The notes beneath the pieces were generated by a model that saw only the letters and a list, made by a program, of their open reading frames with translations, was not told the origin of the DNA and searched no databases. A stretch of DNA of 64,000 nucleotides from an uncultured Clostridia bacterium. GTDB lineage: Bacteria > Bacillota > Clostridia > TANB77 > CAG-508. Below are positions 3,425 to 35,185 of the stretch, in pieces (the stretch's first letter is position 1; the number at the start of each line of letters is the position of its first letter). A program made the position numbers and the translations under genes. The DNA lies in the NCBI GenBank assembly GCA_934183325.1, contig CAKPSH010000004.1, forward strand, positions 27,433 through 91,432, written 5' to 3'.

Positions 3425-3625
3425 TTATTTATTAGCCATATTATTTTCAGCTTGTTGTATTAATTTTTTTACCATGTTACCACCAATTCTACCAGCATCT
3501 CTTGAAGATAAGTTACCATTATAACCATCTTTTAAAGTTACACCAACTTCATTAGCTACTTCATATTTAAACTTTTCTAAAGCATCTATAGCTTCAGGAA
3601 CTAATTTTTTATTTGAATTTGTCAT
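3425..3625 (-). CDS. Small acid-soluble spore protein, alpha/beta type
   Basis: MTNSNKKLVPEA..ALEKFKYEVA..LSSRDAGRIGGNMVKKLI signature of alpha/beta SASP; start ATG at 3625 preceded by GGGAGGTGA RBS (the ORF track over-extends to 3733). Confidence 0.85.
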   Translation of the reverse strand: MTNSNKKLVPEAIDALEKFKYEVANEVGVTLKDGYNGNLSSRDAGRIGGNMVKKLIQQAENNMANK

Positions 3626-4775: not shown

Positions 4776-4816
4776 AAAATATGAGAAAAAATAAAGAGAT
4801 AAGGGAGGAATTTGAA

Positions 4817-5725
4817 ATGCCATCAAATCCAATGCAAAGAAAAGCAAGAAATTCATTCTTAATAGGAGTTTTAGTAACTACAATTGTAATGGGAGCAATA
4901 ATAGGATTACTATTGTTTAAAATGAAAAAACAACAAGATGAACAGAAAAAAAAGGAAAGCGCAGTAAAAGCCGTCTATGTGTTAACAGCTGATTGCACAG
5001 CTGGAGAGAATATTAGTGCAAAATTAAGCAAGAAAAATGTGCAAAGTGATTTAGCACCTATAAATGCTTTAGATGAAACAACATATTTAACAAAAGTGGA
5101 TGCTGATACAGTTGCAAAGATCAATTTAAAAACAGGAACAATTGTAACAGATGAGATGGTTGTGCAAAGTGATAATGTTGTTTCTAATGATACAAGAGAA
5201 CAAGAATTAAATATGATTGTATTGCCAACATATTTGGAACAAGATGATTATATAGATATAAGACTAAGCTTACCAAGTGGAGAAGATTTTATAGTTGTCT
5301 CAAAGAAAAAAATAGTAAACTCAAATGAATCTACTATGTGGATAAATTGTACCGAAGATGAAACATTAATTTTGTCAAATGCTATTGTTGAATCATATCA
5401 AATATTAGGTTCAAAATTATATGCTGTAAGATATGTTGAACCAGGACTTCAAGATACAGCATCAGTTACATATGTACCAAGCAATGCTGTTATAAACTTA
5501 ATTAATTCAGATCCTAATATAGTAGAAAAAGCTAAAACAGAGTTAGCAAATAGAATTAATAACTTATATAAATATAGAACAGAAGTAATTAATTCAGCAT
5601 TAAATGCTAATAGTGAAGATGCACAAAGCAATATACAAAGTGGAGTAGCAACTTCTATTGAAACTCAAAAGGAGCAAAGAGAAAATTATATAAAAGAATT
5701 AGATGCTGCAGGAACAGTAAATTAA
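4817..5725 (+). CDS. cpaB: CpaB/RcpC-like Flp pilus assembly protein (N-terminal TM anchor, SAF-like domain)
   Basis: Start MPSNPMQRK after AAGGGAGG RBS; TM helix FLIGVLVTTIVMGAIIGLLLF; position as first gene of a Tad-type cluster. Confidence 0.5.
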   Translation: MPSNPMQRKARNSFLIGVLVTTIVMGAIIGLLLFKMKKQQDEQKKKESAVKAVYVLTADCTAGENISAKLSKKNVQSDLAPINALDETTYLTKVDADTVAKINLKTGTIVTDEMVVQSDNVVSNDTREQELNMIVLPTYLEQDDYIDIRLSLPSGEDFIVVSKKKIVNSNESTMWINCTEDETLILSNAIVESYQILGSKLYAVRYVEPGLQDTASVTYVPSNAVINLINSDPNIVEKAKTELANRINNLYKYRTEVINSALNANSEDAQSNIQSGVATSIETQKEQRENYIKELDAAGTVN

Positions 5726-5740
5726 AAAGGAGAAATGAAA

Positions 5741-6442
5741 ATGAAAAAAGTTGGATTTATTGGTACAATAGACAAAACAAATCTAATTTTAAGTATTGCA
5801 AAAATATTAACAGTGAAATCCAAAAGAGTATTAATAATAGATGTAACAGTTGAACAAAAATTAAAGTATATTGTACCAACAGTCCATCCAACTAAGACAT
5901 ATATTACAACTTGGGACGATATAGATGTTGCAGTTGGATTTGAAGACTTAAATCAAATTTGTGAATATGCAGGAATAAAAAAATTAGAAGATGAATATGA
6001 TGTTGTTCTATTTAATATAGATGATGTTGAAGCTATAAATAAAATGCAAATTTATGAAGATGATGTTAATTTATTTGTTACAGCTGTGGACTTGTATTCA
6101 ATCAGAAAAGGAATGGAAATATTTGGAAACATAAAAAAACCTATGAAAATGATAAAAATTATATTTTCAATAATAATGGATGATGCAGAAAATGAATATA
6201 TTGATAGCGAAGCTGAAAACTATAGAGTAGAATGGGAAGGAAAACATATATTTTTCCCTCTAATTTTAGAGGACAGATATACAGAAATGGCTAATCAATT
6301 AATATATAAAATAGGTTTTCGAGAGATGAGCCAAATGTATAAAGATAGTTTAGCACACTTAATAGGTGTAATATTTAAAGATGAAATTAAAGAAAATGAT
6401 GTTAAAAAGTTGATAAAAAACTTTGAAAAGGATGGGGTGTAA
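5741..6442 (+). CDS. ParA/MinD-like protein with degenerate P-loop (pilus-locus accessory protein)
   Basis: VGFIGTIDKTNLILSIAKIL occupies the position of a deviant Walker A but lacks GKT; start ATG 5741 after AAAGGAG. Confidence 0.4.
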   Translation: MKKVGFIGTIDKTNLILSIAKILTVKSKRVLIIDVTVEQKLKYIVPTVHPTKTYITTWDDIDVAVGFEDLNQICEYAGIKKLEDEYDVVLFNIDDVEAINKMQIYEDDVNLFVTAVDLYSIRKGMEIFGNIKKPMKMIKIIFSIIMDDAENEYIDSEAENYRVEWEGKHIFFPLILEDRYTEMANQLIYKIGFREMSQMYKDSLAHLIGVIFKDEIKENDVKKLIKNFEKDGV

Positions 6443-6444
6443 AA

Positions 6445-7293
6445 ATGGCTGTAATATCTTTTTGGAATAATAGTAAAGGCGGAAATATAGGACAAACATC
6501 ATCAATAATTGCAACTGCTACATTAATGGCTATTGAACACAACTATAAAATATTGGTAATATCTACAACTAATAATGATATTGAACTTGAAAAAGCATAT
6601 GGTGTAGTTGAAAGTGCTGCAGTTAAAATTTTGAAATTGAAAGAATCAAAATTTAACTCTGGAATTGAAGGAATAATGAAATTAGCATCTAGTGGAAAAC
6701 TTACACCTGAGTTGATTGGAAATTATACTAAGATAGTGTTAAAAAACAGACTAGAAGTTGTAGCAGGAAAAAAAGATGATGAAGATACTGATGAAAATGA
6801 AAAGTTTGATTATCATTCTTATCCTGATGTAATAAAAATAGCCAATAAATATTATGATATGGTTTTTATAGACTTAAATAGAGATCAACAAGATGAAGTA
6901 GTACAAAACATATTAAAACTTTCAGACCTAATTATATTCAACTTTGAACAAAAATACGAAAACATAGATAAGGTATTAAATTTTCAAAAGGAACAAGAAG
7001 AATTATTGCCAAAAAAGAAAACATTATATTTAATAAATAAATATGAAAAAAAATCAAAGTTTAATAGAAAAAACATAATAAGAAATTCAGATATGAAGAA
7101 AAATTTATATGTTGTTCCATATAATGTTATGTTTGCGGATATGATGCAAGCAGGGACAACAGATAGCTGGTTTTTAAATCCAAAAGTAAGAAAAGCTAAA
7201 CCAGAAGAGGAATATGGAGATTTCATAAAAAGCTTAAATGAATTATGTGATGAAATAATAAATAAATTAAGAGAATTACATATATTTAGATAA
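6445..7293 (+). CDS. tadZ: TadZ/CpaE-like MinD/ParA-family pilus assembly protein (non-canonical Walker A)
   Basis: SFWNNSKGGNIGQTSS in place of KGGxGKT; ParA-like length and location between cpaB-like and tadA-like genes. Confidence 0.5.
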   Translation: MAVISFWNNSKGGNIGQTSSIIATATLMAIEHNYKILVISTTNNDIELEKAYGVVESAAVKILKLKESKFNSGIEGIMKLASSGKLTPELIGNYTKIVLKNRLEVVAGKKDDEDTDENEKFDYHSYPDVIKIANKYYDMVFIDLNRDQQDEVVQNILKLSDLIIFNFEQKYENIDKVLNFQKEQEELLPKKKTLYLINKYEKKSKFNRKNIIRNSDMKKNLYVVPYNVMFADMMQAGTTDSWFLNPKVRKAKPEEEYGDFIKSLNELCDEIINKLRELHIFR

Positions 7294-7350
7294 AATAAGA
7301 AAGAAACATAGGAAAGGAGGCATAGCTAATGAAATTCATTAGCTGAGAAA

Positions 7351-9240
7351 ATGAACTATATTTTAATATTTTTAATTGTATGTGGTGCTGTTGCTGGTAT
7401 ATATTTCTTAATAAGAAGTAAAAAAAATGCAGAAGTAGAAAAAGATGTTGAAGTAGATGACAAAACGTATTCACTAGAATTGATGTCTAAATTTGTAAAA
7501 AAGAGACTAGATGATATTACAAAAGTTAATTTATATGATATTGGTCTTTCAGAAGAAGAGTTAAAAAGAAGAAAGAATAAAAAATATGAATTAAAAAAAG
7601 CTTTAAAAGGATGTACTTATGGAGATGTCAATGATAAAAAATATGTAAAAGGGATAATGTTTGATTTATTACTTAAAGAATATGGAGTAGATGAAACAAA
7701 TATATCAAAAGCAATTCCTTTTGATGTTCCATCATTACTTACACCTCAAGATAAATTTGATATAATAATATATAAATATAAAAAAGAATTTGGATATGAG
7801 GCGCTTACACAACTTATAAAAAAATATAATTTAGCGGTTTTAAAATATTTGGAGGGAGAAGCAAAGCCTTCTTATGTTATAACTTCACAGGAAATTTGTG
7901 ATATATTTGAAAAAGAACAAATTCAACTTGAATTTGATGAAAAACTAGAAGTAGTAGTTCAAAGAATATATCAATATTATAAAGGATATAGTAGTATTGA
8001 TGAAGTAAGAGATATGAACATAGATGGTGTGTCTGGAGGTGTATCTGGTTTACCAGAATCATTCTTAAGCCAAGTAGCACAGACAGATGGGGATTATTTA
8101 GGACAAGTAATGGATAACAAAGTTCCAAGATCATGTGATAGTATATGGATATTCTTCCAAGGAAAATCAATAAGATTAGCATTTTTATCATTTGGAAGTG
8201 AAAGTGAACTAAAAAGAGTATGTCAAAATATTTATAAATATAATAATCCAGGACAGTTATCAGATTCAAATGGTTATAAAATCAATGAAATGAAAGATGG
8301 TTCACGTGTCGTTGTTGTTAGACCAAGTATGGCAGAGTCATGGGCATTTTTCGTAAGAAAGTTCGATGTTAAACGTGCAACTTTGGAACAAATTATTACT
8401 TTTGAAGGAAAAGAAATGGCAATTGATTTGCTAAAATTTTTAGTAAAAGGAGCAAGAATTATTTCTCTTACAGGAGAGCAAGGTTGTGGTAAAACAACAA
8501 TGCTTATGGCAATGATTGAAAATATATATGAAACATTAAATATAAGGGTTCAAGAGATGGCTTTTGAGTTACACTTAAGAAAAATCTATCCAACAAGAAA
8601 TATTTTATCATTAAGAGAGACAGAAACAATATCTGGACAGGAAGGTCTAGATGTTCAAAAAAAGACAGATGGTTCTGTTAATATCATTGGTGAGGTTGCT
8701 ACAGACCCAGTTGCTTCATGGATGATACAAGCCGCACAGGTTGCTTCAAAATTCACATTATTTACTCACCACGCAAAAACATTTCCAAATCTCGTTACAG
8801 CATTAAGAAACTCAATGTTAAGAACAGGTGTATTCAAAGATGAAAAAACGGCAGAAGAACAAGTTATTCAAGTATTGAATTTTGATATTCACTTAATAAA
8901 AGACTTTAGAGGAAGAAGATATATTGAAAGAGTTACAGAGTGTGTGCCAATAGAAAATGCAAATCCATATAATAGAGATTATAGAAACGAAAAAACAATA
9001 GAGGGAAAAATAGAAAAATTTATGGATAATGCAACAAATTATTTCCAAAATGTTACAGACAGACAAACTTATGAATATCATAACATTATGGAATTTAGAG
9101 GAGATAAATATGTTTTAACTCATAAAATATCTGACAAAAATATTAGAGAAATGAGAGAAAACATGGATGACGCAGATGCAAAGGATTTTGATGCATTTAT
9201 AGAAAAGTATTGGGGAAAACAATCAAAAGCATCAAAGTAA
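7351..9240 (+). CDS. tadA: TadA/CpaF-family secretion ATPase (VirB11/PilT superfamily) with N-terminal TM segment
   Basis: Walker A GEQGCGKTT, downstream Asp/His box regions; N-terminal hydrophobic helix ILIFLIVCGAVAGIYFLI. Confidence 0.75.
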   Translation: MNYILIFLIVCGAVAGIYFLIRSKKNAEVEKDVEVDDKTYSLELMSKFVKKRLDDITKVNLYDIGLSEEELKRRKNKKYELKKALKGCTYGDVNDKKYVKGIMFDLLLKEYGVDETNISKAIPFDVPSLLTPQDKFDIIIYKYKKEFGYEALTQLIKKYNLAVLKYLEGEAKPSYVITSQEICDIFEKEQIQLEFDEKLEVVVQRIYQYYKGYSSIDEVRDMNIDGVSGGVSGLPESFLSQVAQTDGDYLGQVMDNKVPRSCDSIWIFFQGKSIRLAFLSFGSESELKRVCQNIYKYNNPGQLSDSNGYKINEMKDGSRVVVVRPSMAESWAFFVRKFDVKRATLEQIITFEGKEMAIDLLKFLVKGARIISLTGEQGCGKTTMLMAMIENIYETLNIRVQEMAFELHLRKIYPTRNILSLRETETISGQEGLDVQKKTDGSVNIIGEVATDPVASWMIQAAQVASKFTLFTHHAKTFPNLVTALRNSMLRTGVFKDEKTAEEQVIQVLNFDIHLIKDFRGRRYIERVTECVPIENANPYNRDYRNEKTIEGKIEKFMDNATNYFQNVTDRQTYEYHNIMEFRGDKYVLTHKISDKNIREMRENMDDADAKDFDAFIEKYWGKQSKASK

Positions 9241-9266
9241 AAGATTTCCAGTGAAAGGAGAAAAAA

Positions 9267-18894: not shown

Positions 18895-19014
18895 TATGGA
18901 ATTTAGTGAAGATAAAGTAATTAATGGAGAATTTATACCTTCATATTTTGCATGGCTAACTTTGGAAAAGCAAAAGGAAGTAGCAGATAAACTTTCAAAT
19001 ATGACAAATAAATA
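18895..19014 (+). CDS. Possible small protein (39 aa), unannotated short ORF
   Basis: ATG preceded by AAGAGG RBS at 7-nt spacing; MEFSEDKVINGEFIPSYFAWLTLEKQKEVADKLSNMTNK; below ORF-track size cutoff. Confidence 0.25.
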
Positions 19015-19254
19015 AATCAATAATTAAGAGGTAAAATTTATAAGGATTTTATCTCTTTTTTGATTGCATAAATTATTATTATTAAGAATATTTTATATTT
19101 TATAATTTAAGAAAAATATATAACAAAATTCGAGTAATTATTATTGAAATGAACAAAAAATAGTATAGAGAATTATAATTTTTAAGAAATATATTGAAAA
19201 AGATATAAATAAAACAGTGAAAAAAATTAATGTTGTCAATTTTATTATTACTAT

Positions 19255-19294
19255 TAGAACCTTTGTCTAACACATAGAACCTTTGTCGAACATA
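19255..19294 (+). promoter_or_regulatory. Tandem 20-bp direct repeats (candidate operator) abutting the clpC -35
   Basis: tagaacctttgtctaacaca / tagaacctttgtcgaacata, 17/20 identical, immediately upstream of the TTGAAC -35. Confidence 0.35.
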
Positions 19295-19323
19295 TTGAAC
19301 TTAAAAAAATATATGATTATAAT
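19295..19323 (+). promoter_or_regulatory. Candidate sigma-A promoter of clpC (TTGAAC-17-TATAAT)
   Basis: -35 TTGAAC 19295-19300, 17-nt spacer, -10 TATAAT 19318-19323, 28 nt upstream of the RBS. Confidence 0.45.
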
Positions 19324-19351
19324 TTGAACAAAAAACAAAGGAGATAAAATT

Positions 19352-21793
19352 ATGTTAGATTATAAATTTACAAAAAGTGCAAATAAAGCAATAGAAATGG
19401 CTAGTGAAATAGCTGTAAAATTTGGACATAATTATGTAGGAACAGAACATTTATTATATGGATTGGCTAGTGAAAATACAGGTGTAGCATTTAAAGTATT
19501 AGAAAGACAAAATATTACACCTGATGATATTTTAGATGATATAGAAGAATTAATTGGAAAGAATGATGAAGGAGTTGATAAAACATTAGGATTTACACCA
19601 AGATGTAAAAAAGCTTTTGAAAATGCATATAGAGAAGCAAAGAAAATTAGTTCAGATTTTGTAGGAACTGAACATATACTAGTTGGCATTGTTAAAGAAA
19701 CGGATAGTATAGCCGTTAGAATTTTAAATGATTTAGGTATAGATATACAGAAAATGTATAATGAAATAGTTAAGATATTAGATGAACAAAACTTTAGTGA
19801 TGAAGATTTTATGAAAAGTATAAACATAAAGAATAAAGGAAGTTATGGAATGACGAATACATTAAATCAATATAGTGTTGATTTAACAATAGAAGCTCAA
19901 AAGGGAAAGTTAGATAGTATTATTGGAAGAAATAAAGAAATAGAAAGGGTCATACAAATATTAACTAGAAGAACAAAAAATAATCCTTGTTTAATTGGAG
20001 AGCCAGGAGTAGGAAAAACAGCAATAGTTGAAGGATTAGCAGAAAAAATAGTAGAAGATGATGTGCCAGAAATGTTAAGAAATAAAAGAGTAGTATCATT
20101 AGATATTTCTAGTATGGTAGCAGGAGCAAAATATAGAGGAGATTTTGAAGAAAGAATAAAAAAAGCACTTAATGAAGTTAGAAAAGCAAAAGATATTATT
20201 TTATTTATAGATGAAATACACACAATAGTAGGAGCAGGAGCAGCAGAAGGAGCAATAGATGCAGCTAATATTTTAAAACCATTATTATCAAGAGGAAAAA
20301 TACAACTAGTAGGAGCAACGACAATAAATGAATATAGAAAATATATAGAAAAAGATGCTGCATTAGAACGTAGATTTAGTTCAGTATTAGTTGAAGAACC
20401 AAGTATTAGTGATACAGTAATGATTTTAAGTGGAATAAGAGATAAATATGAATTACATCATAATGTAAAAATAAATGATTCAGCCTTAGAAGAGGCGGTA
20501 ATTTTATCATCAAGATATATAAATGATAGATTTTTACCAGATAAAGCAATAGATATATTAGATGAAGCAGCATCAACAGCAAAGATGAAAAAATATAAAC
20601 TGCCTGAAAAGATAAGAGAAATGGAAGAAGAAATGCTTGAAACGAAAAGAGCAAAAGAGGAGGCAATTAAGACACAGAATTTTGAAGATGCAGCAATATT
20701 AAGGGATAAAGAGGAAAAACAAAAAGCAAAAATGAATGATGAAAAAGAAAAATGGTCTGAAAAAAATGGAAGTGAAAGAATCGAAATTACAAAAGAAGAT
20801 ATAGCAAATATAATATCAAGCTGGACTAATATCCCTGTAAAGAAAATAAATGAAGATGAAAATGAAAAATTGAAAAATTTAGAAAAATCATTACATCAAA
20901 GAGTAATAGGACAAGAAGAAGCAATTAGTGCTTTAGCAAAAGCAATCAGAAGAGGAAGAGTTGGCTTAAAAGATCCTAATAGACCGATAGGTTCTTTTTT
21001 ATTCTTAGGACCTACTGGAGTTGGAAAAACAGAGACAGCAAAGGCTTTAGCAACAGAATTATTTGGTAATGAAAATGCAATGATTAGGTTAGATATGTCA
21101 GAATTTATGGAAGCACATTCAGTAGCCAAATTAATAGGTGCTCCTCCAGGATATGTGGGTTTTGACGAAGGAGGACAATTAACTGAAAAAGTAAGAAGAA
21201 AACCATATTCTGTTATTTTATTTGATGAAATAGAGAAAGCACATATAGATGTAATGAATATATTATTACAAGTATTAGAAGATGGAAGACTTACAGATTC
21301 AACAGGGAGAACCATTGATTTTAAAAATACGGTAATAATATTAACCTCCAATATAGGAGCTTCAAAAATAAATAAAAAGAATACTTTAGGATTTACCGAA
21401 AAAGTTAATGATGAAAAACAAAGAGAATATGAAGATATAAAAAATGAAGTTATGGAAGAAGTAAAAAAAGAGCTAAAGCCAGAGTTTATAAATCGTATAG
21501 ATGAAATAGTGGTATTTCATAAATTAAATGATGAAGAGATAGATAAAATAATAGAACTATTATTAGTACAAGTGGAAAAAAGATTGTTAGATAATGGATA
21601 TAATATAAAAATTGATAGGAGCGTAATAGAAGAAATAAAAAAGAAAGGATATGACAAAAATTATGGAGCACGTCCATTAAGAAGAAGTATTCAAACATTA
21701 GTTGAAGATAAGATAGCAGAAGAAATTTTAGAAGGAAAATTGAAAAATAATCAAAAGTTTTCACTAGAAAGCAAAAAAGTATTTACAAAGTAA
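19352..21793 (+). CDS. clpC: ATP-dependent Clp protease ATP-binding subunit ClpC (double AAA+)
   Basis: Two Clp-N repeats, two Walker A sites (GEPGVGKTAI, GPTGVGKTE), UVR-like linker; 813 aa. Confidence 0.85.
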   Translation: MLDYKFTKSANKAIEMASEIAVKFGHNYVGTEHLLYGLASENTGVAFKVLERQNITPDDILDDIEELIGKNDEGVDKTLGFTPRCKKAFENAYREAKKISSDFVGTEHILVGIVKETDSIAVRILNDLGIDIQKMYNEIVKILDEQNFSDEDFMKSINIKNKGSYGMTNTLNQYSVDLTIEAQKGKLDSIIGRNKEIERVIQILTRRTKNNPCLIGEPGVGKTAIVEGLAEKIVEDDVPEMLRNKRVVSLDISSMVAGAKYRGDFEERIKKALNEVRKAKDIILFIDEIHTIVGAGAAEGAIDAANILKPLLSRGKIQLVGATTINEYRKYIEKDAALERRFSSVLVEEPSISDTVMILSGIRDKYELHHNVKINDSALEEAVILSSRYINDRFLPDKAIDILDEAASTAKMKKYKLPEKIREMEEEMLETKRAKEEAIKTQNFEDAAILRDKEEKQKAKMNDEKEKWSEKNGSERIEITKEDIANIISSWTNIPVKKINEDENEKLKNLEKSLHQRVIGQEEAISALAKAIRRGRVGLKDPNRPIGSFLFLGPTGVGKTETAKALATELFGNENAMIRLDMSEFMEAHSVAKLIGAPPGYVGFDEGGQLTEKVRRKPYSVILFDEIEKAHIDVMNILLQVLEDGRLTDSTGRTIDFKNTVIILTSNIGASKINKKNTLGFTEKVNDEKQREYEDIKNEVMEEVKKELKPEFINRIDEIVVFHKLNDEEIDKIIELLLVQVEKRLLDNGYNIKIDRSVIEEIKKKGYDKNYGARPLRRSIQTLVEDKIAEEILEGKLKNNQKFSLESKKVFTK

Positions 21794-21847: not shown

Positions 21848-23212
21848 ATGGCAAAAGTGAAATCTGTGTTTGTTTGTAATGAATGTGGATATGAATCAGC
21901 TAAATGGATGGGAAAATGCCCAGCATGTAATGCTTGGAATAGCTTTTTTGAAGAAAAAATCACAAAAAGTTCTTCAGGAACTAGTAGTGGCGAAAAGAAA
22001 AAAAGTGTTACACCCCAAAAATTAAATCAAGTTGTGGGAACAGAGGCAACAAGAGTATCAACAGGATTTAAAGAACTAGATAGTGTATTAGGTGGAGGCT
22101 TAGTTAATGGTTCATTAGTACTATTAGGAGGAGAACCAGGAATAGGAAAATCAACACTAATATTGCAAATATGTGATAAATTAAAAACAGATGGAACAAT
22201 TTTATATGTTTCTGGTGAGGAATCAGCAGAACAGATAAAAATTAGAGCAGATAGATTAAAAGTAAATAAGGATAATTTACTATTTTTAGGAGAAACAGAT
22301 ATCGATTTAATTGAAGAGGCGATAAATAATACAAAACCTAAGCTTGTAATCATAGATTCTGTACAGACTATTTACTCAGAAGATGTAACCTCAGCTCCAG
22401 GAAGTGTAAGTCAGGTAAGAGAAGTTACAGCAAGAATAATGAAGATGTGCAAAGCACAGGCAATTACCACAATAATAATCGGTCATGTTACAAAAGATGG
22501 AAATATTGCTGGACCTAGAGTATTGGAACATATGGTAGATGTAGTTTTATATCTTGAAGGAGAAAGATATTTCTCATATAGAGTACTTAGAGGTGTAAAA
22601 AATAGATTTGGATCAACAAATGAAATTGGAATGTTTGAAATGGCAGGAGTTGGGCTTAAAGAAATAGAAAATCCATCAGCTGTTATGATATCTGAAAGAG
22701 ATGATAATCCAGCAGGTTCAGTTGTTGTTGCAAGTATAGAAGGAACTAGACCTTTATTAATAGAAATACAAGCATTAACATCACAAACCGTTTTTGGATT
22801 ACCAAGAAGAACAGCAAATGGATTAGATTATAATAGATTAACATTATTAATAGCTGTACTAGAAAAGAAAGCTGGATTAAACCTTGGAAATCAGGATGTT
22901 TATTTAAATATAGTAAATGGTATAAAAGTAAATGAGCCAGCAATAGATTTAGGGATAATGTTAGCAGCAGCTTCAAGTTATAAGAACATACCAATTTCAA
23001 ATAAGCTAGTGGCAATTGGAGAAGTTGGATTAACAGGAGAAGTAAGAAATGTTAATTTAATTGAAAAAAGACTTAAGGAAGCAGAAAAATTAGGATTTAC
23101 AACTTGCATAATACCAGAAAGCAATAAAAGATACCTTAAAGAAAGTTTTAATCTCCAAATAATTGGTGTAAAAAATATAAATGAAGCTATGAAAGGTGCT
23201 GGGATAAAATGA
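21848..23212 (+). CDS. radA: DNA repair protein RadA/Sms
   Basis: N-terminal C4 zinc finger CNECGYES..CPAC, RecA-like GEPGIGKST P-loop, C-terminal Lon-like domain. Confidence 0.9.
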   Translation: MAKVKSVFVCNECGYESAKWMGKCPACNAWNSFFEEKITKSSSGTSSGEKKKSVTPQKLNQVVGTEATRVSTGFKELDSVLGGGLVNGSLVLLGGEPGIGKSTLILQICDKLKTDGTILYVSGEESAEQIKIRADRLKVNKDNLLFLGETDIDLIEEAINNTKPKLVIIDSVQTIYSEDVTSAPGSVSQVREVTARIMKMCKAQAITTIIIGHVTKDGNIAGPRVLEHMVDVVLYLEGERYFSYRVLRGVKNRFGSTNEIGMFEMAGVGLKEIENPSAVMISERDDNPAGSVVVASIEGTRPLLIEIQALTSQTVFGLPRRTANGLDYNRLTLLIAVLEKKAGLNLGNQDVYLNIVNGIKVNEPAIDLGIMLAAASSYKNIPISNKLVAIGEVGLTGEVRNVNLIEKRLKEAEKLGFTTCIIPESNKRYLKESFNLQIIGVKNINEAMKGAGIK

Positions 23213-25148: not shown

Positions 25149-25275
25149 AATAAGCAAAAAAAATTACCACATTATGTGGTAATTTTTTTTCTTTCTAGAA
25201 AAAGAGCAAGTAATATATTGAAAAAAATAGGTCTTAGAATTATAATAAATTTAATATTATTACAGGGAGATAAAA

Positions 25276-28174: not shown

Positions 28175-28313
28175 AAAATCATCCCTTCTATAATATAAGA
28201 TTTCAATATTATATACCAAAAAAGGTTGAAAATTCAATAGATTATACGAAATATATAGAAAAAATGAAAAAAAGATGATATAATACTTGTTATGTAAATT
28301 AGGAGGAGAAGAA

Positions 28314-30317
28314 ATGAGAAAACATATTTCTAACGAAAAAAAATTAAATTTAATTCTGGAGTATATAAATGAAAAAGGAACAAAACCAATTTATAGTTCA
28401 GAATATAAAGGATATTCTGTTGGGGTATATTTAATATATTTAAGAAAATTAGCATTTGATACAAGAGATTTAGATGAAAAAATAGTACAAACAATGATAG
28501 AAAATGGTTTACTAGATAAAAAATGCGATTTTATTGAAGACAAATTATATAGATTAGAAAAATTTTGTAGAAAATATCCACAAATATGGAGAGAAAGAAG
28601 ATATAAAAGCAGAGATGAACTATTCGCAAGTATTCCAGAGGAAAGAGAAAAAGTAGAGCCATTATTAGAGCAAGCAATAAGTGATTACAGATATATTTCA
28701 GTAAGAAAAGATGATGGAAAAATATCTGAAAAAGATATTTTAAGATTAAGAGAAGCTGGAGCTGGATATAAATTTGAAGATGATAAAGTAATAGAAAGTA
28801 TAGTAAAGAAATATGGAATATCAAAAAATGATTTAGCTGTTGTATGTAACAAATATGGAAATATAAAAAATTTCAAAAACGAATATGTAAAAGCATTAAC
28901 AGAAAGAAGACTTAATGAAATACAACAAAATATACCAAAAAATATTTATGAAAGACTTATAAAAGGATTTGATATATCTCAACCAGACTTTATAAAAAGA
29001 AATAACGGAATAGAAAAACTTATAGACGATATTGTAGGAGCTGAAGAAGGAAATATTGTAAATTTAGAACCAATAAGAAAAAAAATAAAGGAAATAATGA
29101 CAAGAGGAGATAGAAAAAAACAATATGAATTAATAAAATTAAAATATGGAATAGAGGATGGAATAGAAAGAAGTAATGCACAAGTAGCAAAAATAATCGG
29201 CATATCTAGTGAAGCAGTTAGACAATCAAAAGAACATACAATAAATGCTTTGAAAAGAACAGAGGTAAAAATTGTATATGAGGAAGAAAAAATAACAGGA
29301 AAAAGAAGAAGTGAATTTATAGAGGAATTCTTTAGAAATTATGATATATTTATGCCAGATGAGTATATAGAAATAGATAAGGCTGTAAGCATGAAATTAG
29401 AAGAGTTATGTATGAAAGAAAATAAAGTTAGAGAGACTTACAAAAGAAAAATAGAAATATATGGAGATATAAAATTATCAAAAACGATGTTAAGAGGATA
29501 TATTGTAGAAAAATTGAATAAAATTGAAATAGATACTATAGAAGAATTAACACAATATTCAGAAGAGGAATTAATAAAAAAATCAAAATTTAGTAAAAGG
29601 ATAATAATACAAATAAAGGAAGCTTTAAAGGAATTTGGACTAGGATTAGGAAAAACTGTAATAAACCACCAAACAGATGAAAATAGAAACAGTGATATAA
29701 AGCAAAGTCAAGACATTACTAATAATACTAGTATAACAATTGCACATAAAAGTAGAAAAATAGAAGTATTAGATTTAAGTCCTTGTTTATATAATATTCT
29801 TAGAAGAAATGGAATAGAAAATATTGAAGATATTGGAGACATATCAGATAAGAAAAATATTTCAAGATTATTATTAATGAAGGGGTTAGGAAGACAATAT
29901 TTAAATGAATTAGTATATAAAATGAACAATATTAGAGAGTTAAATATAGAAAAACAAAAAACAAACAAAGGTAAAAGTGAAACAGAAAAGAATGATAATG
30001 AGGATATAAGAATAGAAGATACAGGAGAACTAAATAAATATACAATATTAAGAAAATTAAATGATAGAGGAATAATTACACTAGGAGATTTGACTAAGTA
30101 CAATGAAGAAGAATTGAAACTTATTGCAAAAATTAATTTTCAAAGCATTGCAAAAATAAAAGTAATGTTAAAAAAATATGGATTACACTTAGAAGAAAGA
30201 AAAGATAAAAATATAGATGCAGAATTAATGCAGGCAATTCAAGAGTTGCGAGATGCATATAAACAAAAAGTACAAAATAGAATACCAGAACACACATCAG
30301 CAGGAGAAGAAAGATAG
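28314..30317 (+). CDS. Large protein with a sigma-70 region-4 HTH plus three RpoA alpha-CTD-like helix-hairpin-helix repeats
   Basis: [41 protein letters not shown] matches sigma region 4.2. Three segments ([32 protein letters not shown]; [46 protein letters not shown]; [46 protein letters not shown]) resemble the alpha-CTD fold seen in rpoA at 57048-57995. Start ATG 28314 after AGGAGGAG. Confidence 0.5.
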
Positions 30318-34103: not shown

Positions 34104-34186
34104 ATGATATATTGATATGCAAATATGATAATAAAGATAGAATATAATTAATAAAAATGAACAATATAAAACAAGAGGTGGATAAG

Positions 34187-35185
34187 ATGTTTAAACCAAA
34201 AGCTTTATATTGTGAAAGAAATATTGAAAATTACACTTTAGGAAAAGAGATATTAGAAAAATATAAAGATGTTCCGATTATTGAAATAGATAATCATAAT
34301 AATATAGAAGAAATGAGAAAAAAACAGAATTCAGAATTTCCTGATATGAAAAGAAATTTGATAATAGGAGTGAGGAAAACCCACAAATTTGTAGAAAATC
34401 ATAAAACATCAGACTATTTAGTACCATATACATCTTCTGGGTGCACAGCAATGTGTATGTATTGCTATTTAGTGTGTAATTATAATAAATGTGCGTATTT
34501 AAGATTATTTGTTAATAGAGAAGAAATGCTAGATAAAATAATAAAAACAGCACAAAAAAGTGAAAAAGAACTAACATTTGAAATAGGAAGTAATAGTGAT
34601 TTAATATTAGAAAATACAATTACAAATAATTTAGTATGGACAATAGAAAATTTTGCCAATACAGAAAAAGGAAAACTTACATTACCTACTAAATTTAATA
34701 TGGTTGATGATATATTAACATTAAAACATAATAGAAAAGTAATTATAAGAATGAGTGTAAATCCAGAAGAGATTATTAATAAAGTAGAATTTGGAACTTC
34801 CAGATTAGCTCAAAGAGTAGAAGCAATAAATAAACTAATAGAAGCGGATTATCCAGTAGGGATATTAATTGCACCTGTAATATTAGTAGAGAATTGGAAA
34901 GAATTATATTCAAATTTAATAAAATATTTATATGACAATTTAAGTAAAAAAGTAAAAAAAGAAGTGTTTTTTGAAATTATATTTATGACATACAGTTATG
35001 TGCATAATGCAATAAATAGAGAAGCTTTTCCAAATGCAATTAATTTATTTGATAAAGATATAATGACTGGTAGAGGAAAAGGAAAATACATGTATAAAGA
35101 ATATATAAGAAAAGAAGGAGAAGAATTTTTAAGAAATGAAATGAATAAATATTTTAAAAATAATAAAATAATGTATGTAGTATAA
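34187..35185 (+). CDS. splB: Spore photoproduct lyase SplB (radical SAM)
   Basis: LIIGVRKTHKF, SGCTAMCMYCYL (Cx3Cx2C), GKLTLPTKF, VEFGTSRLAQRVEAINKLIEADYPVGILIAPV align with Bacillus SplB; start ATG 34187 after AAGAGGTGGA. Confidence 0.85.
   Translation: MFKPKALYCERNIENYTLGKEILEKYKDVPIIEIDNHNNIEEMRKKQNSEFPDMKRNLIIGVRKTHKFVENHKTSDYLVPYTSSGCTAMCMYCYLVCNYNKCAYLRLFVNREEMLDKIIKTAQKSEKELTFEIGSNSDLILENTITNNLVWTIENFANTEKGKLTLPTKFNMVDDILTLKHNRKVIIRMSVNPEEIINKVEFGTSRLAQRVEAINKLIEADYPVGILIAPVILVENWKELYSNLIKYLYDNLSKKVKKEVFFEIIFMTYSYVHNAINREAFPNAINLFDKDIMTGRGKGKYMYKEYIRKEGEEFLRNEMNKYFKNNKIMYVV

Follow-up and report, generated by a model that had tools for sequence, protein, structure and literature searches.

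The window analysed here is a stretch of 64,000 nucleotides from an uncultured Clostridia bacterium (contig CAKPSH010000004.1), and the element under study lies in it just upstream of clpC, where two 20-bp direct repeats run into a promoter facing clpC, radA and disA. Each repeat contains a 9-bp box resembling the 0A box, the site bound by the sporulation master regulator Spo0A. The locus comprises the following features:

18896-19015, + strand: small open reading frame (ORF) of 39 aa (MEFSEDKVINGEFIPSYFAWLTLEKQKEVADKLSNMTNK; containing GEFIPSYFAWLTLEKQKE), conserved, the upstream boundary of the locus
19027-19061, + strand: weak terminator-like hairpin AGAGGTAAAAT...ATTTTATCTCT followed by TTTTT, read from the sequence, after the small ORF
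19255-19274, + strand: repeat 1, TAGAACCTTTGTCTAACACA, from sequence reading and the repeat finder
19262-19270, + strand: box 1, TTTGTCTAA, inside repeat 1
19264-19270, + strand: 0A-like core TGTCTAA of box 1 (6/7), at about -66 to -60 from the predicted start
19275-19294, + strand: repeat 2, TAGAACCTTTGTCGAACATA, from sequence reading and the repeat finder
19282-19290, + strand: box 2, TTTGTCGAA, inside repeat 2
19284-19290, + strand: perfect 0A core TGTCGAA of box 2, at about -46 to -40
19295-19300, + strand: -35 hexamer TTGAAC, 4 nt past box 2
19318-19323, + strand: -10 hexamer TATAAT, 17-nt spacer from the -35
19338-19344, + strand: ribosome-binding site AAGGAGA (GGAG at 19340-19343), read from the sequence and kept in the alignment of relatives
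19352-21793, + strand: clpC, 813 aa, with Clp_N, two AAA modules and ClpB_D2-small
21848-23212, + strand: radA (sms), TIGR00416, 614 bits
23209-24279, + strand: disA (diadenylate cyclase / DNA integrity scanning), NF010009, 481.6 bits

The two repeats are identical at 18 of 20 positions (90%) and lie head to tail; they directly abut the -35 hexamer, as an earlier note on this DNA had described, and clpC transcription probably starts around 19330, about 7 nt past the -10 hexamer. The non-coding stretch before clpC, put by the same note at about 330 nt, measures 336 nt (19016-19351), but the conserved 39-aa ORF just before it had gone unmentioned. The window has a single 20-bp tandem whose copies agree at 18/20 or more positions, and 200 composition-matched first-order Markov simulations produced none. 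The 11-mer shared by the repeats (GAACCTTTGTC) is not significant when taken alone (two matches in the window, a number reached by 16 of 100 shuffles), and the evidential weight therefore lies in the tandem arrangement and in its conservation among relatives.

The TGTCGAA of box 2 is the sole intergenic copy in the window, which has a G+C content of about 26%; the repeat motif itself contains G+C. Further occurrences of the repeat had been suggested as something to look for, and within the window none was found beyond chance (9 matches to the repeat 15-mer at three or fewer mismatches vs. 10.3 expected), the tandem arrangement being unique; no regulon can thus be defined from the window. The element can be written as two motif patterns, the pair TTTGTCKAA-N11-TTTGTCKAA and AGAASSTTTGTCKAA. 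In an Rfam covariance-model scan of the whole window a single tRNA reached the gathering score and the repeats matched no family; because they lie upstream of the -35, they are not expected in the transcript. Two other readings of the repeats were discarded. An internal dyad in repeat 1 (TTAGA-N7-TCTAA) is not kept in repeat 2 or in the relatives, and a sigma-H promoter, with AGAAC of repeat 1 as -35 and GAAC of repeat 2 as -10 at the correct 12-bp spacing, was rejected by eye, as the sequence reads GAAC/GAAG and not GAAT and the flanks do not fit.

Conservation of the element and loss of ctsR-mcsA-mcsB

The clade comparison covered 12 loci, namely the window, seven species-level relatives from a ClpC scan of the genome collection (L001-L007, 79-83% ClpC identity) and four loci added by protein search and contig look-ups (L201, L203, L209 and L210, 73-78%), the ClpC proteins of the other loci being 73-83% identical to that of the window. 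The relatives are uncultured Clostridia known as metagenome-assembled genomes from mouse and human gut. All 12 loci have the same layout. On the 5' side, the small ORF is followed in most loci by a terminator, then by W-AGAA-SS-TTTGTCTAA, 3 nt and W-AGAA-SS-TTTGTCGAA (S being G or C); on the 3' side, box 2 is followed by 4 nt, TTGAAN, 16-17 nt, TATAAT, a ribosome-binding site and clpC. The spacing from box 1 over 11 nt to box 2 and over 4 nt to the -35 is fixed across the clade. The comparison of clpC upstream regions proposed in the earlier note thus finds the repeats, with this geometry, in the 11 other clade loci.

Conservation within the element is uneven. Box 2 (TTTGTCGAA) is identical in 12 of 12 loci (mean column identity 1.00) and box 1 (TTTGTCTAA) in 11 of 12 (0.98), the exception being L203 with TTTGTAAAA. 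The -35 hexamer follows with a mean column identity of 0.93 (TTGAA being invariant in all 12), then the AGAA-SS flanks (0.84-0.88) and the linkers (0.67-0.79). TATAAT is kept in every locus, while over the spacer between -35 and -10 the window agrees with the other loci at no more than 5-8 of 16 positions. Conservation is strongest exactly in the two 9-mers that match the 0A box. The two S positions of the flank interchange CC and GG among loci, and the copies within one genome share flank variants (TAGAACC...AAC in the window, AAGAACC...AAG in L201), a possible sign of concerted evolution or of selection favouring identical sites. Within the species of the window, seven strains represented by human-gut metagenome contigs show no variable site at 19255-19323 and about 12 in the 235 nt upstream (19016-19250). 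Judged by these alignments, the element upstream of clpC is a clear phylogenetic footprint, as befits a conserved, functional operator.

One pair of records departs from this picture downstream of the promoter. In L202 / L214 (ENA ERZ27287107 k141_243283) the flanks, including the repeats, are nearly identical to those of the window, but the clpC allele encodes a protein only 77% identical and is followed by a 112-aa ORF, not by radA; either recombination or a chimeric assembly would account for this.

In agreement with the earlier note, clpC in the window stands without ctsR-mcsA-mcsB, none of which was found in the 64 kb. By tblastn, ctsR is absent from the window and from L001-L007, and the same search finds it in about 35 more distant loci. 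The closest available queries for ctsR, mcsA and mcsB (from L208) gave no window match better than E = 0.23 and none in the other clade loci, and a search of the 336-nt spacer for remnants with the same queries found none. The note's statement that the repeats match neither the CtsR box nor CIRCE also holds, as neither was found near clpC. Tandem CtsR heptads (RGTCAAA-NAN-RGTCAAA) give four window matches at two mismatches vs. 4.1 expected, none of them near clpC, and the CIRCE/HrcA operator TTAGCACTC-N9-GAGTGCTAA has no window match at three or fewer mismatches. Canonical CtsR operators were recovered as positive controls upstream of ctsR in L008, L013, L014, L020, L036, L076 and L205-L208.

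The sister lineages L205-L208, whose ClpC is about 68-69% identical, indicate what the ancestral locus looked like. They carry a 52-57-aa homologue of the small ORF immediately or closely upstream of ctsR-mcsA-mcsB, and clpC follows mcsB in L205, L206 and L208 (the contig of L207 ends within mcsB). Their ctsR promoters read TTGACA/TTGACT-17-TATAAT and lead directly into the operator RGTCAAA-GAA-AGTCAAA, and the distant loci are alike. Because the sister lineages keep small ORF-ctsR-mcsA-mcsB-clpC together with the operator, the clade of the window appears to have deleted ctsR, mcsA, mcsB and the CtsR operator; by this comparison of gene order, the ctsR-less clpC locus is the derived state, with a junction that now bears a different promoter-operator. 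A likeness to the CtsR operon persists in that clpC, with radA and disA downstream, lies under direct repeats beside a strong sigma-A promoter, and in that the small ORF and clpC are orthologous to the flanks of the canonical operon of the sister lineages. The ctsR-clpC operon of C. acetobutylicum has been found to be co-expressed with solventogenic genes (PMC2530871), but it retains CtsR, unlike the clade studied here.

Other clpC loci without ctsR nearby were also encountered. Three of them (L009-L011) share a different element, ATTGGTAAATAATTAGTATAAGTAAATA, about 60-110 nt upstream of clpC, and a fourth (L204) has ATTGGGTAAAC at 5930-6000. Replacement of CtsR may have occurred on more than one independent occasion.

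Candidate regulators of the clpC repeats

The 9-mers agree closely with the 0A box. Its core, TGTCGAA, is contacted by Spo0A at G2, C4 and G5, the residues on its flanks being A or T according to the analysis; the specificity is common to B. subtilis and C. difficile Spo0A, and binding in C. difficile followed the prediction from a consensus box at four of four promoters tested, spo0A, sigH, lplA and ssuA (PMC3485338). In box 2 the core is exact, with a T-rich flank 5' of it and A on the 3' side; box 1 matches the core at six of seven positions, keeping G2 and C4 and having T for G5. The two boxes have the same orientation and stand 20 bp apart, in helical phase, with box 2 ending 4 bp before the -35. 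TGTCGAA lies at a fixed position within 3.5 kb upstream of clpC in eight of eight clade loci examined; of about 50 other clpC loci, the majority with ctsR, almost none has it upstream of clpC.

A metagenome scan for TTTGTCKAA-N11-TTTGTCKAA returned at least 120 stretches, a sample selected by the pattern itself. Among the matches listed, in L195 the pair separates a dacF-like gene from spoIIAA-spoIIAB-sigF and stands 54 nt ahead of spoIIAA; in L198 a three-box array (TTTGTCGAAttaTGTCGAAtTTTGTCGAA) precedes by 62 nt a gene for a response regulator whose Spo0A_C domain scores 120.8 bits; the metS/abrB intergenic region of L149 has the pair upstream of a consensus promoter; and L081 and L112 repeat the geometry of the window (box 2, 4 nt, a -35-like hexamer, 16-17 nt, -10). 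L149 also has classical adjacent boxes (TTTGTCGAAtatTGTTGAA) just downstream of the facing abrB promoter. The occurrence of spo0A, spoIIA and abrB among at least 120 pattern-selected loci is suggestive, being far above random placement, with no formal P value. We therefore regard Spo0A, and not a new stress regulator, as the most likely binder of the clpC repeats, since the 9-mers match the 0A box and the same phased pair recurs at spo0A, spoIIAA-spoIIAB and abrB of other Firmicutes.

Some of these loci have features of their own. The divergent metS/abrB region of L149 (5578-5790) carries a 20-bp tandem (two copies of ACAACTATTTGTCGAAAAAT) before the consensus promoter facing metS. In L107, L138, L177, L190 and L194, on contigs of 26-37% G+C, three boxes phased at 10 bp (e.g. 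TTTGTCGAAatATGCCGAAatTTGTCGAA), with TTTGTCGAA at each end and a near match between, lie between dnaN and the adjacent gene, which in L107 belongs to the ComK family (PF06338) and is followed by recF, with close homologues in L177 and L190 by inspection. This arrangement suggests that Spo0A controls a comK-like gene, or replication-proximal DNA, at such loci.

The organism very probably encodes Spo0A, a strong inference from the sporulation genes of the window read against the survey of Galperin et al. The window contains a full-length spoIVB (15175-16404; TIGR02860, 362.7 bits, above the curated cut-off) and spoVG (18364-18642), and two further genes of this kind:

3428-3625, - strand: alpha/beta-type small acid-soluble spore protein (SASP) gene
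34157-35185: spore-photoproduct-lyase-like gene

In that survey, the presence of Spo0A served to divide Firmicute genomes into spore formers and asporogenous ones, spoIVB was among the widely conserved sporulation genes, and some Spo0A-positive non-spore-formers had lost spoIVB and SASP genes (PMC3533761).

Among promoters of known type, the clpC element comes closest to the Spo0A-box promoters (spo0A, spoIIA, spoIIE, spoIIG and abrB). It has in common with them the TGTCGAA core with a T-rich 5' flank, several same-orientation boxes in helical phase beside the promoter, a graded strength with one perfect and one imperfect box, and an endospore-forming host; the identical 20-bp pair is found in L195 (spoIIAA) and L149 (metS/abrB), and the same 9-mer in the L198 array upstream of spo0A. 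It differs from them in its target, clpC-radA-disA, in its spacing of 20 bp in place of the classical 10 bp (a 3-bp spacer), in the extra conserved AGAA-SS flank and in that binding here is predicted. Its core promoter is near consensus with a 16-17-bp spacer, unlike that of spoIIG, a Spo0A-activated promoter with an over-long spacer. At the level of sequence, it fails every test for a CtsR operator, for CIRCE and for a Cheo box.

On balance, we consider it probable, by a limited measure, that the repeats are a conserved operator of two tandem Spo0A-type 0A boxes, centred at about -43 and -63, which couple clpC-radA-disA to sporulation entry. The earlier note had suggested the operator of a different stress regulator; an operator, conserved in 12 loci, is what the comparison points to, but its regulator is more likely Spo0A than a new stress regulator. 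Under the proposed mechanism, the ancestral ctsR-mcsA-mcsB and CtsR operator would have been deleted in a clade of uncultured spore-forming gut Clostridia, with a new promoter in their place. Both boxes would lie on one face of the helix, two helical turns apart, the proximal one abutting the -35 of a sigma-A-type promoter. Phosphorylated Spo0A (Spo0A~P) would fill the perfect box 2 first and then, co-operatively, the weaker box 1, and would modulate a promoter of already good basal strength, so tying transcription of clpC-radA-disA to stationary phase and sporulation entry.

Both Spo0A binding at the boxes and the sign of regulation are predicted from the arrangement of the sites. Activation, at the onset of sporulation and through contact with RNA polymerase beside the -35, is slightly favoured over repression, because the boxes lie wholly upstream of the core hexamers, unlike the CtsR operator of the relatives and the boxes downstream of abrB promoters, and because ClpCP has established sporulation roles (PMC11960690, PMC11960778). 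By analogy with promoter A2c of phage Nf, repression by occluding the upstream promoter region is also conceivable; Spo0A~P dimers bind perfect and imperfect boxes and activate or repress from boxes adjoining core promoters (PMC2731898).

If this reading is correct, clpC-radA-disA is a predicted new Spo0A target and a new promoter of a known system, and the locus would be a clean natural case of regulatory rewiring, in which a lineage dropped the whole CtsR-McsA-McsB arginine-phosphorylation heat-shock module and gave control of the ClpC unfoldase and of two DNA-integrity genes, radA and disA, to the master regulator of sporulation. Both DNA surveillance and the quality control of proteins would then be tied directly to the sporulation decision. 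The sporulation roles of ClpCP include turnover of SpoIIAB, and DisA is a sporulation DNA-integrity checkpoint. Activation of sigma-A promoters reportedly involves contact with sigma (Schyns et al. 1997, cited in PMC12090719). The proposal would also raise the matter of how ClpC is targeted without McsB. It is readily testable, as the Spo0A DNA-binding domains of model species have the same specificity. It would not overturn current understanding, Spo0A regulons being large and lineage-variable; the organism is uncultured.

Several observations weigh against Spo0A as the binder. No spo0A gene was seen in the 64-kb window or in the flanks of relatives, and our search of the literature turned up no case in which Spo0A was said to control clpC directly. 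The AGAA and two G/C bases 5' of each box are conserved but are not part of the classical 0A box, and this flank is absent from the spoIIAA, spo0A and abrB examples. Classical adjacent 0A boxes are 10 bp apart and those at clpC 20 bp. A near-consensus core promoter does not obviously need an activator, and the metagenome matches were selected by the pattern, which makes their association with Spo0A targets suggestive and not a calibrated statistic. Lastly, the core of box 1 has T at position 5 without exception; Spo0A contacts this base, and a G5A change cut Spo0A affinity about 10-fold (PMC3485338).

The AGAA-SS flank, the invariant T5 of box 1 and the shared flank variants are not explained by the 0A box, and for this reason it stays possible, if doubtful, that a regulator other than Spo0A reads the 16-bp unit AGAA-SS-TTTGTCKAA twice, be it a stress regulator succeeding CtsR in class III control or a response regulator of long direct repeats. 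The flank is kept in both repeats across sub-lineages whose other intergenic bases diverged, it lies outside the 0A box and is missing at spoIIAA, spo0A and abrB, and the switch between CC and GG at its S positions would fit a constraint on shape or the minor groove rather than on specific bases. In layout (a pair of 9-bp direct repeats, 11 bp apart, next to the -35) the element resembles LytTR-type sites (AgrA, ComE, VirR), in which two direct repeats of about 9 bp lie about 12 bp apart immediately upstream of the -35; unlike these, the clpC repeats fit the LytTR consensus poorly (about five of nine positions by eye), have an 11-bp spacer and have no LytTR regulator linked to the locus. In L201 both repeats read AAAGAAC, and the SinR consensus, GTTCTYT, is ARAGAAC when read on the other strand. 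No candidate gene for a regulator of this kind is linked to the locus, as the sole linked gene, the small ORF, is equally present in L205, L206 and L208, which bear ctsR and lack the repeats; the 15-mer has no further window copies beyond chance; and the strongest conservation falls exactly on the 0A-box 9-mers. In a possible composite arrangement, the AGAAC flank would be read by a second factor and the box by Spo0A. It is slightly more doubtful still that the 16-bp units are the operator of a new regulator that replaced CtsR and McsB over clpC, and perhaps over other protein-quality-control genes, with the likeness to the 0A box being coincidental or reflecting competition by Spo0A.

All readings beyond these, even when combined, appear improbable. 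A divergent CtsR encoded elsewhere in the genome might be thought to bind the repeats, given that clpC is a classical CtsR target and that the bottom strand reads AGACAAA and CGACAAA, one and two changes from the heptad AGTCAAA, but this is unlikely: in the relatives examined, ctsR comes first in the clpC operon and the operator (RGTCAAA-GAA/GAT-AGTCAAA, 10-bp period) lies nearly always just downstream of the -10, whereas the clpC repeats read TTTGTCKAA with a 20-bp period upstream of the -35, and no ctsR, mcsA, mcsB or remnant was found in the window or in a set of 24 loci from the clade and sister lineages, nor tandem heptads beyond chance in the window. Equally unlikely is a neutral tandem duplication or merely upstream promoter DNA. 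Tandem 20-bp duplications with a TTTGTCGAA-like word and lineage-specific flanks do occur elsewhere (e.g. L149), and the flank variants shared by copies within one genome could stem from slippage or gene conversion, but the geometry is fixed in all 12 loci, over a ClpC identity range of 73-100%, while the spacers next to the repeats have been randomised, the repeats show no within-species polymorphism, and a G+C-containing motif has been preserved in an intergenic region of 26% G+C. As for LexA boxes of the Cheo type (GAAC-N4-GTTC) controlling the repair genes radA and disA, which lie downstream, the window repeats do read GAAC-CTTT-GTCT and GAAC-CTTT-GTCG; the second half-site is then GTCT or GTCG and not GTTC, the arrangement is a direct repeat and not a dyad, repeat 2 is GAAG-GTTT-GTCG in most relatives and GAAC-N4-GTTC is found nowhere in the window, so that this explanation is very improbable.

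Neighbouring genes and other features of the window

The ClpC of the window differs by three residues from its nearest database entry (P0001). We considered whether it had lost the UVR/M-domain motif along with McsB and rejected this, as KEEAIKTQNFEDAAILRDKE is intact and the absent Pfam tag is a threshold effect. On the + strand no terminator lies between clpC and radA, the earliest being at about 25156-25190, and radA is probably co-transcribed with clpC; a promoter-like site at 21782 means that radA may also use a promoter of its own. The start of disA overlaps the end of radA by 4 nt, and a cyclophilin gene lies further downstream.

The small ORF upstream of clpC differs from its counterparts in L001-L007 mostly synonymously and belongs to a family of 76 protein clusters, unnamed and with no Pfam hit. 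It always lies just upstream of clpC in the clade and upstream of ctsR-mcsA-mcsB-clpC in the sister lineages, and may encode a small partner or regulator of the Clp system; it is unlikely to be the repeat-binding regulator, for the ctsR-bearing sister lineages without repeats have it equally. The hairpin at 19027-19061 falls below the G-C criterion of the terminator scanner, and an equivalent hairpin (GTGAG...CTCAC TTTTTT) is found at the same place in L001-L007, L203, L209 and L210. Between this terminator and the repeats, 19062-19250 is about 190 nt of very A+T-rich DNA specific to the species of the window, where relatives have only about 10-70 nt; nearly all variation among strains falls within it, and several promoter-like matches are found there on both strands.

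The genes upstream of the repeats are spoIVB, murC (on the opposite strand), spoVG and the small ORF. In the window, ruvX-DUF1292 (71-806) lies 18 kb upstream of the small ORF, and in L208 (1642-2757) it directly precedes the small ORF and ctsR; the block of SASP, unknown cluster, spoIVB, murC and spoVG was therefore inserted or rearranged in the lineage of the window. The unknown cluster, immediately upstream of spoIVB, consists of eleven co-directional ORFs (4781-15062, + strand) with almost no Pfam or NCBIfam matches; only 5735-6442 (ParA/MinD-like, weak, E = 0.005) and 7351-9240 (T2SSE-type ATPase, E = 3.5e-6) gave any. The cluster has the look of a strongly diverged set of Tad or type IV-like pilus or secretion genes, and its final three ORFs (144, 306 and 174 aa) also precede spoIVB in L202. 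Further downstream in the window, a 676-aa ORF (28287-30317, + strand) has as its only Pfam match the RNA polymerase alpha C-terminal domain (residues 487-547, E = 1.7e-11), and would thus encode an unusually large protein with an alpha-CTD-like module.

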